Assembly: GCA_000146045.2 (NCBI GenBank)
Contig: BK006946.2
Location: forward strand, 576,001-640,000
DNA: 64,000 nucleotides
Direction: 5' to 3'
From: TPA_inf: Saccharomyces
Taxonomy: Eukaryota
Within the stretch, counting starts at the first letter, position 1, and every line of letters begins with the position of its first letter. This document shows, piece after piece, positions 23,352-59,984 of this stretch. The translations under genes and the position numbers were made by a program. The notes under the pieces are model-generated. The model was given only the letters and a program-made list of their open reading frames with translations. It made no database searches and had not been told where the DNA came from.

Positions 23352-24872
23352 TTATTTATCCAATGAAAGATCCACATGGACTGATTTTATTTGTAAATAG
23401 TTATCAACGCCGGTGTCGCCTGATTCTCTACCAATACCACTCATCTTAAATCCGCCAAAAGGAACTTTAGCTTCTTCTTGATTGGTTTGATTGATCCAAA
23501 CAGTTCCTGCTTTAATATCGCGAGCAAACATGTGCGCTTTCTTGACATCTTTGGTGAAGACCGCAGAGGCGAGCCCGTAGCAAGTATCATTAGCCAGCTT
23601 CAGAGCGTCATCATAATTTGTGAACTTGCTAACAACCACAACCGGGCCAAATATTTCATCACGCAGCAACTTAGATGTTTCTGGTACATCAGTGAAGATG
23701 GTTGGGGGAATGAAGTAGCCTTTAGCTCCACCAATAGGAAATTCAGAGGTCTGGAACATGTCCAACTTTTCCTCCTTTTTACCACGTTCTATGTAACTTT
23801 TGATGCGGTCATACTGTGTACTTGATATAACTGGACCAACGATGCATTTCTCATCAAACGGATCAAATTTTCCTGCAACATCCCACTCCTTCTTTGCAGT
23901 TTCTTTAAACTTTTCAACAAACTTGTCGTAGATCGAACTTTGAACATAAACTCTTGAGTTTGCAGTGCAGATCTGTCCCGAATTAAAAAAAATACCATTT
24001 GCTACCCATTCTATAGCCTTATCAAGGTCTGCATCTTCAAATACAAGAGCAGGAGACTTACCACCGCATTCTAGTGTGATATCCTTAAGGTTCGATTGGC
24101 CGGAAGCTTCCAATACTGAGCCGCCAACCTTAGTACTTCCCGTAAAAGATATTTTGTCGATATCCATGTGGGTTCCTAAAGCTTTCCCCACAACGGAACC
24201 ATAACCAGGAATGACATTGACAACACCAGGTGGAAAACCTGCTTTTTTAATTAAAGTAGCAAAATAAAGTAGAGATAGAGAGGTATTTTCAGCAGGTTTG
24301 ATGATAACCGTGTTACCGGCCGCTAAGGCACCTTGCATTTTTCTACAAGCCATAGCTAGAGGATAATTCCATGGAACGATTTGAGCAACAACGCCAAAAG
24401 GAACTTTTAGAGTATATGCAAACTTGTTAAAAGTCAATGGAATGGTTTCACCCATATTGAACTTGTCGACCGCCCCCGCATAGTATCTTGTAAGTTCTAT
24501 AATCTGGGCTAAGTCTTGTTTAGCATTGGAATGGAAAGGCTTACCAGCGTCTAAAGTCTCTAATGCGGCAAGTGTGTCTTGCTCCTCCTCAATAAGTTTT
24601 AATAAGTTTGAAAGATAAATACCACGTTGCTCAGAAGATGTCTTCGACCAAACGTTATCAAAAGCAGCCCTGGCAGCTTTCACAGCTTTGTCTACATCCT
24701 TTTCGTTAGCTGCTTGGAAGGATGTTATCGGTTCGCCAGTAGCTGGGTTCACAGTTTCGATGGTCTTTCCATCTGATGATGGACAAAACTCATTGTTGAT
24801 AAACAACCCTAGCGGTTGCTTTAAAGAGATTTTCAATTGTGGGATTTCGATATCAGTATACAAGGTAGGCAT
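23352..24872 (-). CDS. ALD3: Cytoplasmic aldehyde dehydrogenase, 506 aa, stress-induced paralog.
   Basis: ALDH family motifs are present (catalytic Cys in GQICTA; GSTKVG, ELGG-like ECGGKSP). It is the paralog proximal to CEP3. A tandem copy lies 2210 bp away. Confidence 0.85.
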   Translation of the reverse strand: MPTLYTDIEIPQLKISLKQPLGLFINNEFCPSSDGKTIETVNPATGEPITSFQAANEKDVDKAVKAARAAFDNVWSKTSSEQRGIYLSNLLKLIEEEQDTLAALETLDAGKPFHSNAKQDLAQIIELTRYYAGAVDKFNMGETIPLTFNKFAYTLKVPFGVVAQIVPWNYPLAMACRKMQGALAAGNTVIIKPAENTSLSLLYFATLIKKAGFPPGVVNVIPGYGSVVGKALGTHMDIDKISFTGSTKVGGSVLEASGQSNLKDITLECGGKSPALVFEDADLDKAIEWVANGIFFNSGQICTANSRVYVQSSIYDKFVEKFKETAKKEWDVAGKFDPFDEKCIVGPVISSTQYDRIKSYIERGKKEEKLDMFQTSEFPIGGAKGYFIPPTIFTDVPETSKLLRDEIFGPVVVVSKFTNYDDALKLANDTCYGLASAVFTKDVKKAHMFARDIKAGTVWINQTNQEEAKVPFGGFKMSGIGRESGDTGVDNYLQIKSVHVDLSLDK

Positions 24873-25561: not shown

Positions 25562-27082
25562 TTAGTTGTCCAAAGAGAGATTTATGTGAACTGCTTTTGT
25601 TTGAAGATAGGTATCAACACCACTTTGCCCCAGTTCTCTACCAATACCACTCATTTTAAACCCGCCAAAAGGAACGGTAACATCTTCATCGTTAGATGAG
25701 TTGATCCAAACAGTTCCTGCTTTAATATCGCGAGCAAACATGTGCGCTTTCTTGACATCTTTTGTGAAGACCGCAGAGGCGAGCCCGTAGCAAGTATCAT
25801 TAGCCAGCTTCAGAGCGTCATCATAATTTGTGAACTTGCTAACAACCACAACCGGGCCAAATATCTCATCCTGTAACAGTTTCGATGTTTGCGGGACATC
25901 AGTGAAGATGGTTGGGGGAATGAAGTAGCCTTTAGCTCCACCAATAGGAAATTCAGAGGTCTGGAACATGTCCAACTTTTCCTCCCTTTTACCACGTTCT
26001 ATGTAACTTTTGATGCGGTCATACTGTGTACTTGATATAACTGGACCAACGATGCATTTCTCATCAAACGGATCAAATTTTCCTGCAACATCCCACTCCT
26101 TCTTTGCAGTTTCTTTAAACTTTTCAACAAACTTGTCGTAGATCGAACTTTGAACATAAACTCTTGAGTTTGCGGTACAATTCTGTCCTGAATTGTAGAA
26201 AATGCCAGCTGCTATCCAATCGATAGCCTTATCAAGGTCTGCATCTTCAAATACGAGAGCAGGAGACTTACCACCGCATTCTAGTGTAACGTCTTTAAGG
26301 TTCGATTGGCCGGAAGCTTCCAACACAAATCCACCGACCTTGGTGCTTCCCGTAAAAGATATTTTGTCGATATCCATGTGAGATGCTAGGGCTTGGCCTA
26401 CAAGTGATCCATAACCAGGAACGATATTGACAACACCAGGTGGAAAACCTGCTTTTTTAATTAAAGTAGCAAAATAAAGTAGAGATAGAGAGGTATTCTC
26501 AGCAGGTTTGATGATAACCGTGTTACCGGCTGCTAAGGCACCTTGCAATTTCCAACAAGCCATAGCTAGAGGATAATTCCATGGAACGATTTGAGCAACA
26601 ACGCCAAAAGGAACTTTTAGAGTATATGCAAACTTGTTAAAAGTCAATGGTATGGTTGCACCTTTGTCAAACTTATCAGCGGACCCAGCAAAATATCTGG
26701 TAAGCTGTAAAATTTGTGCCAAATCACCTTTGGCATTTGAATGGTAAGGCTTTCCAGCGTCTAAAGTCTCTAATGCGGCAAGTGTGTCTTGCTCCTCCTC
26801 AATAAGTTTTAATAAGTTTGAAAGATAAATACCACGTTGCTCAGAAGATGTCTTCGACCAAACGTTATCAAAAGCAGCCCTGGCAGCTTTCACAGCTTTG
26901 TCTACATCCTTTTCGTTAGCTGCTTGGAAGGATGTTATCGGTTCGCCAGTAGCTGGGTTCACAGTTTCGATGGTCTTTCCATCTGATGATGGACAAAACT
27001 CATTGTTGATAAACAACCCTAGCGGTTGCTTTAAAGAGATTTTCAATTGTGGGATTTCGATATCAGTATACAAGGTAGGCAT
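25562..27082 (-). CDS. ALD2: Cytoplasmic aldehyde dehydrogenase, 506 aa, tandem paralog of ALD3.
   Basis: It has the same ALDH motifs (GQNCTA, ECGGKSP). It is about 92% identical to the upstream copy. The ALD2/ALD3 assignment is by position (distal to CEP3). Confidence 0.8.
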   Translation of the reverse strand: MPTLYTDIEIPQLKISLKQPLGLFINNEFCPSSDGKTIETVNPATGEPITSFQAANEKDVDKAVKAARAAFDNVWSKTSSEQRGIYLSNLLKLIEEEQDTLAALETLDAGKPYHSNAKGDLAQILQLTRYFAGSADKFDKGATIPLTFNKFAYTLKVPFGVVAQIVPWNYPLAMACWKLQGALAAGNTVIIKPAENTSLSLLYFATLIKKAGFPPGVVNIVPGYGSLVGQALASHMDIDKISFTGSTKVGGFVLEASGQSNLKDVTLECGGKSPALVFEDADLDKAIDWIAAGIFYNSGQNCTANSRVYVQSSIYDKFVEKFKETAKKEWDVAGKFDPFDEKCIVGPVISSTQYDRIKSYIERGKREEKLDMFQTSEFPIGGAKGYFIPPTIFTDVPQTSKLLQDEIFGPVVVVSKFTNYDDALKLANDTCYGLASAVFTKDVKKAHMFARDIKAGTVWINSSNDEDVTVPFGGFKMSGIGRELGQSGVDTYLQTKAVHINLSLDN

Positions 27083-32688: not shown

Positions 32689-33981
32689 ATGGGTTTATTT
32701 GATAAAGTGAAGCAATTTGCTAACAGCAATAATAACAACAATGATTCTGGCAATAACAATCAAGGCGATTATGTTACCAAAGCTGAGAATATGATCGGCG
32801 AAGATAGAGTCAATCAATTCAAAAGCAAAATCGGAGAGGACAGATTTGATAAGATGGAGTCCAAGGTTCGTCAACAATTTTCTAATACCTCTATAAATGA
32901 CAACGACTCCAACAACAACGACTCATATGGTTCTAATAACAACGATTCATATGGTTCTAACAACAATGATTCATATGGCTCTAACAACAATGATTCATAT
33001 GGCTCCAACAACAATGATTCATATGGCTCTAACAACGATGATTCCTACGGTTCTTCCAACAAGAAGAAGAGCTCTTATGGTTCTAACAATGACGATTCGT
33101 ACGGCTCCAGCAACAACAATGACTCTTACGGTTCCAACAACAATGACTCTTACGGTTCCAACAACAATGACTCTTACGGTTCCAACAATGACGACTCTTA
33201 CGGTTCGTCAAACAAGAATAAGAGCTCTTACGGTTCCAACAATGACGATTCTTATGGCTCTAACAATGATGATTCATATGGTTCTTCCAACAAGAAGAAG
33301 AGTTCTTATGGTTCCAGCAACAACGATTCGTATGGTTCTAACAACGATGATTCATATGGTTCTAACAACAATGATTCATATGGCTCTAACAACGATGATT
33401 CCTACGGTTCTTCCAACAAGAAGAAGAGCTCTTATGGTTCTAACAATGACGATTCGTACGGCTCCAGCAACAACAATGACTCTTACGGTTCCAACAATGA
33501 CGACTCTTACGGTTCGTCAAACAAGAATAAGAGCTCTTACGGTTCTTCTAGCAACGATGATTCTTACGGATCTTCCAATAACGACGACTCTTACGGTTCT
33601 TCCAACAAGAAGAAGAGTTCTTATGGTTCCAACAATGACGATTCTTATGGCTCTAACAATGATGATTCATATGGTTCTTCCAACAAGAAGAAGAGTTCTT
33701 ATGGTTCCAGCAACAACGATTCGTATGGTTCTAACAACGATGATTCCTACGGTTCTTCTAACAAAAAGAAGAGTTCTTATGGTTCCAACAACGATGATTC
33801 ATACGGCTCCAGCAACAACAATGACTCTTACGGTTCCAACAATGACGACTCTTACGGTTCCTCTAATAGAAACAAGAACTCCTATGGGTCTTCCAACTAC
33901 GGTTCATCCAACAATGATGACTCTTATGGTTCATCTAATAGAGGCGGTCGTAATCAATACGGTGGTGACGACGATTACTAA
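32689..33981 (+). CDS. DDR48: DNA-damage and stress-responsive protein built of tandem SYG/SNNNDSYG repeats, 430 aa.
   Basis: Roughly 35 copies of the octapeptide S-N-N-(N/D)-D-S-Y-G are interspersed with SSNKKKSSYG units. The sequence begins MGLFDKVKQFANSNNNNNDSGNNNQGDY. Confidence 0.9.
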   Translation: MGLFDKVKQFANSNNNNNDSGNNNQGDYVTKAENMIGEDRVNQFKSKIGEDRFDKMESKVRQQFSNTSINDNDSNNNDSYGSNNNDSYGSNNNDSYGSNNNDSYGSNNNDSYGSNNDDSYGSSNKKKSSYGSNNDDSYGSSNNNDSYGSNNNDSYGSNNNDSYGSNNDDSYGSSNKNKSSYGSNNDDSYGSNNDDSYGSSNKKKSSYGSSNNDSYGSNNDDSYGSNNNDSYGSNNDDSYGSSNKKKSSYGSNNDDSYGSSNNNDSYGSNNDDSYGSSNKNKSSYGSSSNDDSYGSSNNDDSYGSSNKKKSSYGSNNDDSYGSNNDDSYGSSNKKKSSYGSSNNDSYGSNNDDSYGSSNKKKSSYGSNNDDSYGSSNNNDSYGSNNDDSYGSSNRNKNSYGSSNYGSSNNDDSYGSSNRGGRNQYGGDDDY

Positions 33982-34081
33982 GTTTTTGGATGTCTTCGAT
34001 AAAAAAAATATATTATTGTGTTTAGACTTAAGTATGAAAATTTTATGTATGAGCTGTGGCTATGTATCCGCTGGCAAATAG
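32897..34081 (+). other. YMR173W-A: Dubious ORF (394 aa) in the +2 frame of the DDR48 repeat array. It is a frame artefact of the stop-free repeat.
   Basis: The translation is a monotonous MIHMALTT/PTRRRALMV repeat that mirrors the DDR48 nucleotide period. It has no independent coding signature. Confidence 0.3.
32900..33960 (+). repeat. Coding minisatellite. The base unit is 24 bp (SNNNDSYG), nested in higher-order units that contain AAGAAGAAGAGC (KKKS).
   Basis: Recurring strings can be read directly: gattcatatggttctaacaac, gactcttacggttccaacaa and tcttccaacaagaagaagag. Confidence 0.9.
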
Positions 34082-58688: not shown

Positions 58689-59984
58689 TTACTCACCTTT
58701 GCAACTTTGTTCAATAAATTCATTGATCTTTTCAAGTTCCTGACATCTTTTGTAACTGGCATAGAGCTTCAGACTTGACCAGCCTATAGCAGCAGTACCA
58801 CAACCTATAATATTGAAAATCATTCTAAATTCCGAAGGGGAGCAATTCGGCGTCCATTCAATTTTAAACTTTCTCTGTATCCATAGAAAAGCATTCAATA
58901 GAAGACCTCCTGTACATTTACCAACAAAGGGCCATAGTATCTTTTCTGCAAGAATAGCATACCAATTCCGCCTGATAAAAAATTCCTCAGCTGGAACGCT
59001 ATTACTAGAGTTTTCAAAATTTCCGTGATACAAATACTTACCTCCTTTATTGATCAGCCTCCTGTAAATTAAGTCAACCAATCTTTTAAAGGTAAAATTA
59101 TAGCAAAATGTAGCCAAGTTAGAATACAAAATTATTTTAGGTAAACCTATACCCTTGTAATATTTGTTTCCAGCAGTTTTTACAATACTGAGATACACCC
59201 ACTTAAAGAGTATTGCATTAGCACTGACGTTAGAAATGTTGCTAAGATAATGTATGAACCCATATATTATGATCGAGGAGGTTAAAGGAATGCTTAATAA
59301 GCCACGTTCAGTTTGCGCATATACGTCCAATGCCTTTGTAGTGCTGATGTTTAACATATTTCGTAGAACATTCTCAGGGAAAAGGCAGCGTAGTTGCCAT
59401 AATCCAATGTCAAAACTTGTCTTTTCAGGGTTTAAAAGAAATAAACTAGTTATCCCTAATGGTATCACGTATCGTGTAATTTTTTGCCACTGATAAAACA
59501 GGGATAGTACAGAAGACTGGATGGTTACTGTAGGTCTTTTTATGAAATTTGTTTTCTTGCATTGAGGACATTCGCCAAATTTCACTAACACATAAGGTGG
59601 ATGATTATCCCGTTTGGTATAAAGAGACATTAGATTGAACACGTAGTCATTTTGAAACGGTACTGATTTTTGCCCCCAAATGGGACGAGTTTCCCATATT
59701 TCTGTAAGAGAGAAAGTCGTCATAAAATCATGGTGCCCATCAACGAGACATTTTAAACAGGTGATTATAGGTAAATCAGCATCCTTTGGTAGGTCCACTG
59801 TGTTCGGAAGAAAAAGTTCAACATGCATTTGATAGAGCCATCTTATATAGCAGCGTTTATGAATTTGTAAGTTGCAACCGCACGTGTGCTGTAGCCATGT
59901 AGAGTCATATGTGGATTCTTCCAAACATATCCAGCATATGCATCTTTTTTTTATGAGAGATAAAAAAAAATGAGGTGGGGTCAT
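58689..59984 (-). CDS. YMR187C: Uncharacterised 431-aa protein with an N-terminal C4HC3 (RING-CH-like) Cys/His cluster followed by hydrophobic segments.
   Basis: The N-terminus reads RCICWIC-x14-CGC-x4-HKRC-YIRW-x-CLKC. Several hydrophobic stretches lie downstream (LGITSLFLL, IIIYGFIHYL, GLLLNAFLWI). Confidence 0.7.
   Translation of the reverse strand: MTPPHFFLSLIKKRCICWICLEESTYDSTWLQHTCGCNLQIHKRCYIRWLYQMHVELFLPNTVDLPKDADLPIITCLKCLVDGHHDFMTTFSLTEIWETRPIWGQKSVPFQNDYVFNLMSLYTKRDNHPPYVLVKFGECPQCKKTNFIKRPTVTIQSSVLSLFYQWQKITRYVIPLGITSLFLLNPEKTSFDIGLWQLRCLFPENVLRNMLNISTTKALDVYAQTERGLLSIPLTSSIIIYGFIHYLSNISNVSANAILFKWVYLSIVKTAGNKYYKGIGLPKIILYSNLATFCYNFTFKRLVDLIYRRLINKGGKYLYHGNFENSSNSVPAEEFFIRRNWYAILAEKILWPFVGKCTGGLLLNAFLWIQRKFKIEWTPNCSPSEFRMIFNIIGCGTAAIGWSSLKLYASYKRCQELEKINEFIEQSCKGE

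Follow-up and report, generated by a model that had tools for sequence, protein, structure and literature searches.

We have analysed the open reading frame (ORF) at positions 58689..59984, minus strand, of a 64,000-nt stretch of Saccharomyces DNA (GenBank contig BK006946.2, positions 576,001 to 640,000 of the forward strand); the whole of this stretch is referred to below as the window. The ORF, taken from the ORF list, specifies the 431-amino-acid protein YMR187C of Saccharomyces cerevisiae: it is 100% identical to the S. cerevisiae protein P0001, and relatives in its sequence cluster are named “uncharacterized protein YMR187C”. Conservation across the family and a predicted structure suggest that YMR187C is a divergent, lineage-restricted candidate RING-type E3 ubiquitin ligase, in which a zinc finger split by a long insertion would recruit an E2 and a C-terminal helical domain would serve membrane attachment and substrate recognition. 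We put the probability of this reading at about one half.

Conserved residues of a putative split C4HC3 finger

An initial annotation of this DNA had noticed a string of eight potential zinc ligands in C4HC3 order at residues 17-79, and it occurs exactly there: window positions 59748-59942 (minus strand) translate to residues 15-79, CICWICLEESTYDSTWLQHTCGCNLQIHKRCYIRWLYQMHVELFLPNTVDLPKDADLPIITCLKC, in which the pattern C17-x2-C20-x14-C35-x-C37-x4-H42-x2-C45-x30-C76-x2-C79 is literally present. When the protein sequence was shuffled 200,000 times, a loosened six-ligand pattern turned up 20 times and the eight-ligand pattern once; therefore, the cluster is not a by-product of the 17 cysteines that the protein contains in total.

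Conservation was counted in an alignment of 34 family sequences, except for C17, C20 and position 19, which were counted over the 30 with an intact N-terminus. All 34 sequences retain C35, C37, H42 and C45, and all 30 retain C17 and C20. These six ligands lie in the N-terminal RING half (residues 14-58; window 59811..59945, minus strand), which includes the match to the Pfam family RINGv (residues 17-52) and is modelled by AlphaFold2 with a predicted local distance difference test (pLDDT) of 81-90. Ligand 4 and the His are separated by 4 residues in every one of the 34 sequences. The H-x2-C-x3-W element, to which the annotation had drawn attention, is conserved, position 49 being Trp in 26 sequences, Tyr in six and Leu in two.

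The last two ligands had to be reassigned. The annotation had closed the finger with C76-L-K-C79 (window 59748..59759, minus strand), but position 76 is Cys in S. cerevisiae alone (1/34) and position 79 in 3/34, and position 76 is already a Ser in S. uvarum, whose overall identity is 83%. By its lack of conservation, its location in a predicted helix (residues 71-81) and its score in the splice test described below, this pair probably does not bind zinc. The conserved pair lies 93 residues past C45, in C139-P-Q-C142-K143 (window 59556..59570, minus strand): C139, P140, Q141 and C142 are each present in 34/34, and position 143 is Lys in 29 and Arg in one. With its canonical Pro and the basic residue that follows (Arg in RNF38), this motif probably contributes ligands 7 and 8, as judged from conservation, the checked translation and the splice score. 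We prefer C139/C142 over C76/C79 because only the former are invariant and because CPQC is modelled in coil, whereas C76/C79 are in mid-helix. Their use as the final zinc ligands thus appears likely from conservation, and the complete set is most likely C17, C20, C35, C37, H42, C45, C139 and C142, that is, a C4HC3 RING split by an insertion of ~93 residues. The loop between ligands 6 and 7, which had been taken as 30 residues long, accordingly counts 93 in S. cerevisiae, and it is similar or longer in every orthologue.

The second-loop insertion itself (residues 59-133; window 59586..59810, minus strand) is delimited by the alignments, by the AlphaFold2 pLDDT and by uncharged runs in orthologues. 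An unrecognised intron was considered as its origin and ruled out, since in all orthologues the insertion keeps the reading frame, is translated and shows some conservation (D82, P101). In most orthologues, the counterpart of its second half (residues ~99-133; window 59586-59690) is hydrophobic and free of charges over 18-31 residues (P0004, P0006, P0008, P0009, P0011 and P0023; the Vanderwaltozyma example reads VVGVPLFSILCIPLLTGLT), while the equivalent stretch in S. cerevisiae and S. uvarum is polar and modelled as disordered. A hydrophobic element within a RING loop is unusual.

A small family in Saccharomycetaceae

Homologues were collected by sequence and profile searches of a set of 5.8 billion proteins and by an index-free phmmer search over 1.84 billion representatives. 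The sequence search returned 19 family matches, the profile search 35 and phmmer 21; the same small family was found in all three, and none of these homologue searches yielded a tail of weak matches or a tie to a wider family. All named members are from Saccharomycetaceae (Saccharomyces, Torulaspora, Zygosaccharomyces, Vanderwaltozyma, Henningerozyma, Maudiozyma, Kluyveromyces and Eremothecium). Judged from these sequences, YMR187C founds a small family that is confined to Saccharomycetaceae. Several of its orthologues are automatically named “RING-CH-type domain-containing protein” in UniRef, and orthologue P0015 has a precomputed match to PF12906 (RINGv); the likeness to RING-CH is already present in the databases and is not new.

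Profile and structure-database matches

In Pfam, YMR187C matches RINGv best (gathering cut-off, 21.6 bits), the S. cerevisiae protein scoring 16.8 bits over its full length, 21.1 bits over residues 1-100 and 21.7 bits over residues 1-52. Across the 34 family members, RINGv is matched by 25 at an expectation value (E) ≤ 1 (best, 8.4e-6), zf-RING_2 (PF13639; cut-off, 27.3 bits) by eight, the PHD model (PHD_2) by a single one at E 0.38 and SLX1_C, weakly, by two. The initial annotation was right, then, to see a RING-superfamily C4HC3 finger with RINGv as the best Pfam family. The Pfam match that it proposed as a check was only partly borne out: S. cerevisiae straddles the cut-off (16.8-21.7 versus 21.6 bits), while several orthologues do match RINGv.

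The two candidate closing pairs were compared in a splice test, in which the insertion was removed in silico and either CPQC or CLKC was joined to the N-terminal half, for S. cerevisiae and three orthologues. With CPQC, the S. cerevisiae finger aligned to RINGv from end to end at 24.0 bits, above the cut-off, and zf-RING_2 gave 21.1 bits in place of 16.1. When CLKC was joined instead, RINGv dropped from 21.7 to 19.7 bits.

When the family was searched against PDB sequences, by sequence and by profile, most matches were RING E3s (the RING-H2 proteins RNF24, RCHY1 and RNF38, the RING-CH domains of Doa10 (2m6m) and K3 (1vyx), RING1B and Not4). The 93-residue insertion and a spacing that falls between those of RING-H2, RING-CH and PHD fingers together explain why standard domain models score YMR187C at or below threshold.

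Comparison with known zinc fingers

With the RING-CH fingers (PF12906) of Doa10 (MARCH6; 2m6m) and of K3 (MIR1; 1vyx) from Kaposi's sarcoma-associated herpesvirus (KSHV), YMR187C has in common the C4HC3 order, ligands 3 and 4 spaced C-x-C, and H-x2-C-x3-W-L after the His. It further shares CWIC-x-EE, CGC and vH-x2-C-x3-WL with K3 and, with Doa10, a His two residues before ligand 3. A finger placed N-terminally of a helical, hydrophobic domain also recalls the layout of Doa10 and the MARCH proteins. In RING-CH fingers, ~7 residues separate ligand 4 from the His. YMR187C has 4, and Doa10 and K3 can only be aligned with it by way of a three-residue gap; the short pre-His loop, which the annotation had flagged as a departure from RING-CH, is real. 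Between ligands 6 and 7 lie 93 residues as against ~11-25 (the latter being the annotation's figure), and the native profile score reaches the Pfam cut-off at best. On pre-His spacing and second-loop length, strict membership in RING-CH fails, and on profile score it is borderline. C4HC3 fingers are classed as RING-CH/RINGv in the literature (PMC4021871).

The RING-H2 E3s RNF24 and RNF38 (PF13639) resemble YMR187C in the start of the finger (C-x-[IV]-C-L-E-[ED]), in the helix H-x2-C-[LIY]-x2-W-L and in the end, C-P-x-C-[KR]; moreover, the distance from C37 to H42 equals that between ligands 3 and 5 in RING-H2. The position of RING-H2 ligand 4, however, is taken in YMR187C by an invariant Leu, and C35, two residues upstream, acts as a putative ligand instead, giving C4HC3. 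The zf-RING_2 scores (8.8-21.1 bits) stay under the cut-off, and the large insertion is another difference. The C-terminal C4HC3 RING of Slx1 (7cq2, 6seh, 4zdt) has the same ligand order, but it has neither an insertion nor a hydrophobic domain. It is the partner-binding domain of a nuclease.

Read from the sequence, the finger of YMR187C combines the ligand order and flanking motifs of RING-CH with a PHD-like pre-His spacing and a RING-H2-like start and end (C-x-I-C-L-E-E and C-P-x-C-K). By analogy, it would work most like a RING-CH or a RING-H2 E3.

Putative E2-contact positions and a proposed mechanism

In RING E3s, four positions corresponding to residues 19, 49, 140 and 143 of YMR187C contact the E2, and the basic residue after the last Cys is the “linchpin” for the E2~ubiquitin conjugate. 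Across the family, Ile or Val occupies position 19 in 30/30, Trp position 49 in 26/34 and Pro position 140 in 34/34, and position 143 has Lys or Arg in 30/34. In the alignment with RNF38, I19, W49, P140 and K143 stand opposite Val, Trp, Pro and Arg, in that order, and the equivalences are visible in the RNF24 alignment too. It is mainly because these positions are conserved that we favour a ligase rather than a finger with a purely structural role.

We propose that the N-terminus folds as a RING-type cross-brace zinc finger in C4HC3 order, in which C17, C20, H42 and C45 would form zinc site 1 and C35, C37, C139 and C142 zinc site 2. The split finger would recruit the E2~ubiquitin conjugate, by which YMR187C would act as an E3 ubiquitin ligase, and membrane attachment and substrate recognition may fall to the C-terminal helical domain, jointly with the structured portion of the insertion.

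Predicted structure

The full-length AlphaFold2 model, computed with the 34-sequence alignment, has a mean pLDDT of 82 and a predicted template modelling score (pTM) of 0.81. It contains short strands at residues 14-17, 23-25 and 39-42, followed by a helix (residues 43-58) that begins at the His/Cys pair; strands followed by a helix starting at this pair are a hallmark of RINGs, here in a predicted fold. C76 and C79 are inside a confident alpha-helix (residues 71-81), and the coil in which CPQC is modelled fits what would be expected of a zinc knuckle. Within the insertion, residues 70-98 are predicted to be helical (pLDDT 69-86 over residues 61-100) and residues 103-129 disordered (pLDDT 43-44 over residues 101-130). 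Long helices, mostly at pLDDT 85-96, make up residues 158-428. Foldseek found nothing significant in the PDB for the full-length model (best E 0.19, template modelling (TM) score ~0.1).

The C-terminal domain

The all-helical domain at residues 158-428 (window 58701..59513, minus strand) includes candidate membrane helices, put forward on the basis of the AlphaFold2 model, hydropathy and the composition of variable alignment columns. Its moderately hydrophobic cores are at residues ~166-186, 232-250, 255-269, 281-299, 349-369 and 386-408. The C-terminal ~270 residues have no relative in Pfam or the PDB and no detectable similarity to the membrane domains of Doa10 or MARCH proteins. The hydrophobic stretches listed in the initial annotation do exist, but as quoted they span 9-12 residues rather than 15-20, and the maximum Kyte-Doolittle value is 1.56.

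The most conserved element outside the RING is at residues 185-231 (window 59292..59432, minus strand), with invariant N185, R199, E204, L207 and T216, and near-invariant K217, D220 and others. The motif, N-x2-KW-x-FKLGLWQLRCLFPE-x-VLR...STTKALDVY, is conserved as strongly as the RING (mean column entropy of 1.23 bits, versus ~2.2-2.5 bits in the neighbouring helices) and has no match in Pfam or the PDB; its conservation makes it a candidate functional site.

Hydropathy was scored in a 19-residue Kyte-Doolittle window with a threshold of 1.6, alongside a Hessa value taken as a simple unweighted sum, and was calibrated on other genes in the window identified with Pfam. A mitochondrial carrier, a true six-helix membrane protein, shows the same profile as YMR187C: no segment at ≥1.6, four at ≥1.0 and an equal density of uncharged runs. 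Most soluble proteins in the window have no such segments, and the soluble helical-repeat protein Rtp1 has three in 981 residues; with four in 431 amino acids, YMR187C has three times the density of Rtp1, matching that of true membrane proteins. In segments 158-186, 281-299 and 386-408, hydrophobic residues make up 56-61% of the variable columns (alignment entropy > 2 bits) and charged residues 1-11%, as compared to 27% and 33% in the RING finger, and 33% and 31-36% in the helix extensions 300-317 and 409-428. Variable positions that stay hydrophobic are a signature of lipid-facing surfaces, and for this reason we favour lipid-facing helices. On this sequence evidence, membrane embedding of YMR187C is somewhat more likely than the converse, and an overall layout like that of MARCH/Doa10 is plausible.

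Alternative explanations

Several results weigh against the proposed split-finger ligase. Save for the marginal 21.7 bits of the 52-residue fragment, no native S. cerevisiae score clears the Pfam gathering threshold, and the RINGv alignment covers only positions 1-38 of the 47 in the profile. The splice test raised the scores of three of the four proteins and lowered that of one; the pLDDT around CPQC is only 68-72; the PDB sequence matches are all weak (E 2e-4 to 0.1), and the single best of them, often ranked first, is a PHD finger, BRD1 PHD1 (2ku3, 2l43; E 2.3e-4 to 0.014). The PHD match bears on a rather unlikely alternative, in which the zinc-binding RING/PHD-like module has no ligase activity and is structural or serves interaction (e.g., peptide or lipid binding, or an Slx1/Nse1-like scaffold), the real activity being in the helical domain, where the motif at residues 185-231 suggests a second functional site. 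PHD fingers, to which many of the Foldseek matches belong, do share with YMR187C the C4HC3 order, the typical 4 pre-His residues and, in BRD1, a nearly identical CNL-x-VH-x2-CY. Nevertheless, YMR187C is not a PHD finger by three features. Its ligands 3 and 4 are spaced C-x-C where PHD fingers have 2-4 residues in between (the BRD1 alignment puts the third Cys out of register), the aromatic residue two positions before ligand 7 is missing (residue 137 is Ala, Pro or Gly), and ligand 6 leads into a helix, as it does in RINGs. Two further traits, the C-P-x-C knuckle and the W-L motif, are those of a RING, and the Pfam PHD signal is almost nil (one of the 34 sequences, versus 25 for RINGv). Above all, the conservation of I19, W49, P140 and K143 has no obvious explanation other than E2 binding. 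Far less probable still is the compact 63-residue RING-CH of the initial annotation (C17 to C45 plus C76/C79), which would be directly comparable to the fingers of MARCH and Doa10: S. cerevisiae does have the eight residues in C4HC3 order, and a last loop of 30 residues is closer to the canonical range, but the distribution of Cys at positions 76 and 79, their place in mid-helix in a confident region of the model, and the opposite effects of CLKC and CPQC on the RINGv score count against this version, which conservation already brings close to refutation.

The split-finger ligase might also be a soluble cytosolic RING protein with a water-soluble helical bundle as its C-terminal domain, a serious possibility that nonetheless falls short of an even chance. 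No segment passes the classical transmembrane thresholds, given the Kyte-Doolittle maximum below 1.6 and a best Hessa sum of +3.9 kcal/mol, and the uncharged runs conserved in the family are just 13-16 residues long. At 33-46 residues, the predicted helices exceed the thickness of a bilayer, and Rtp1, which is soluble, carries a few segments of the same sort. A strain with N-terminally haemagglutinin (HA)-tagged YMR187C was scored “cytosol”, with no call in the green fluorescent protein (GFP) library (PMC12450460, Table S2); no other localisation entry turned up, and YMR187C was not found in the supplementary files searched from a native-proteome organelle map. The “cytosol” call carries little weight, since it is the default of the HA assay, which also assigns it to the known membrane proteins Der1, Fth1, Ena1 and Gpi19 (PMC12450460). 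A soluble bundle would further have to account for a density of hydrophobic segments equal to that of true membrane proteins and for variable, surface positions that in at least three segments are ~60% hydrophobic and at most 11% charged, unlike those of the RING and the helix extensions.

The gene and other features of the window

YMR187C is located next to the gene for mitochondrial ribosomal protein S17 and an Hsp90 gene (identified with Pfam in the window). In the literature library searched, no paper mentioning YMR187C turned up, and the gene was not found in the supplementary files searched from an interactome study. In some S. cerevisiae assemblies, a product of 379 amino acids starting at M53 is annotated, which does not include the first six zinc ligands (codons 1-53; window 59826-59984). 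We rejected natural RING-less alleles as an explanation because the DNA upstream of M53 is identical to that in the window, so that only the choice of start codon by the gene caller differs. At the 5′ end of the ORF (window 59925-59975), the coding strand has the homopolymers T9 (codons 5-8) and A8 (codons 11-14), which are of a frameshift-prone type and identical in all four S. cerevisiae sequences compared.

Elsewhere in the window, two ORFs of 506 amino acids stand in tandem on the minus strand (23352-24872 and 25562-27082) and begin with the same peptide, MPTLYTDIEIPQ; from their sequences, this looks like a tandem gene duplication. Two long ORFs on the plus strand, of 430 (32689-33981) and 394 amino acids (32897-34081), overlap in different frames. 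The 430-amino-acid ORF contains neither an uncharged run of ≥14 residues nor a hydrophobic window.

Implications

A finger split in this way and closed by CPQC appears not to have been described previously. A bolder version, which we consider a long shot, is that the family comprises Saccharomycetaceae-specific, membrane-embedded “split-RING” ligases, in which only docking of the insertion on the helical membrane domain would complete the second zinc site and E2 activation, and activity would thus be tied to the membrane domain's state (e.g., a bound lipid or client). For experiments, the corrected ligand assignment matters in that mutating CLKC would probably yield a false negative. In S. cerevisiae, Doa10 is generally regarded as the RING-CH ligase. 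If the proposed reading is true, YMR187C would be a second, lineage-restricted RING-type candidate and, therewith, a new enzyme to study in a heavily used model organism; the RING reading gives an orphan yeast ORF a concrete biochemical hypothesis.

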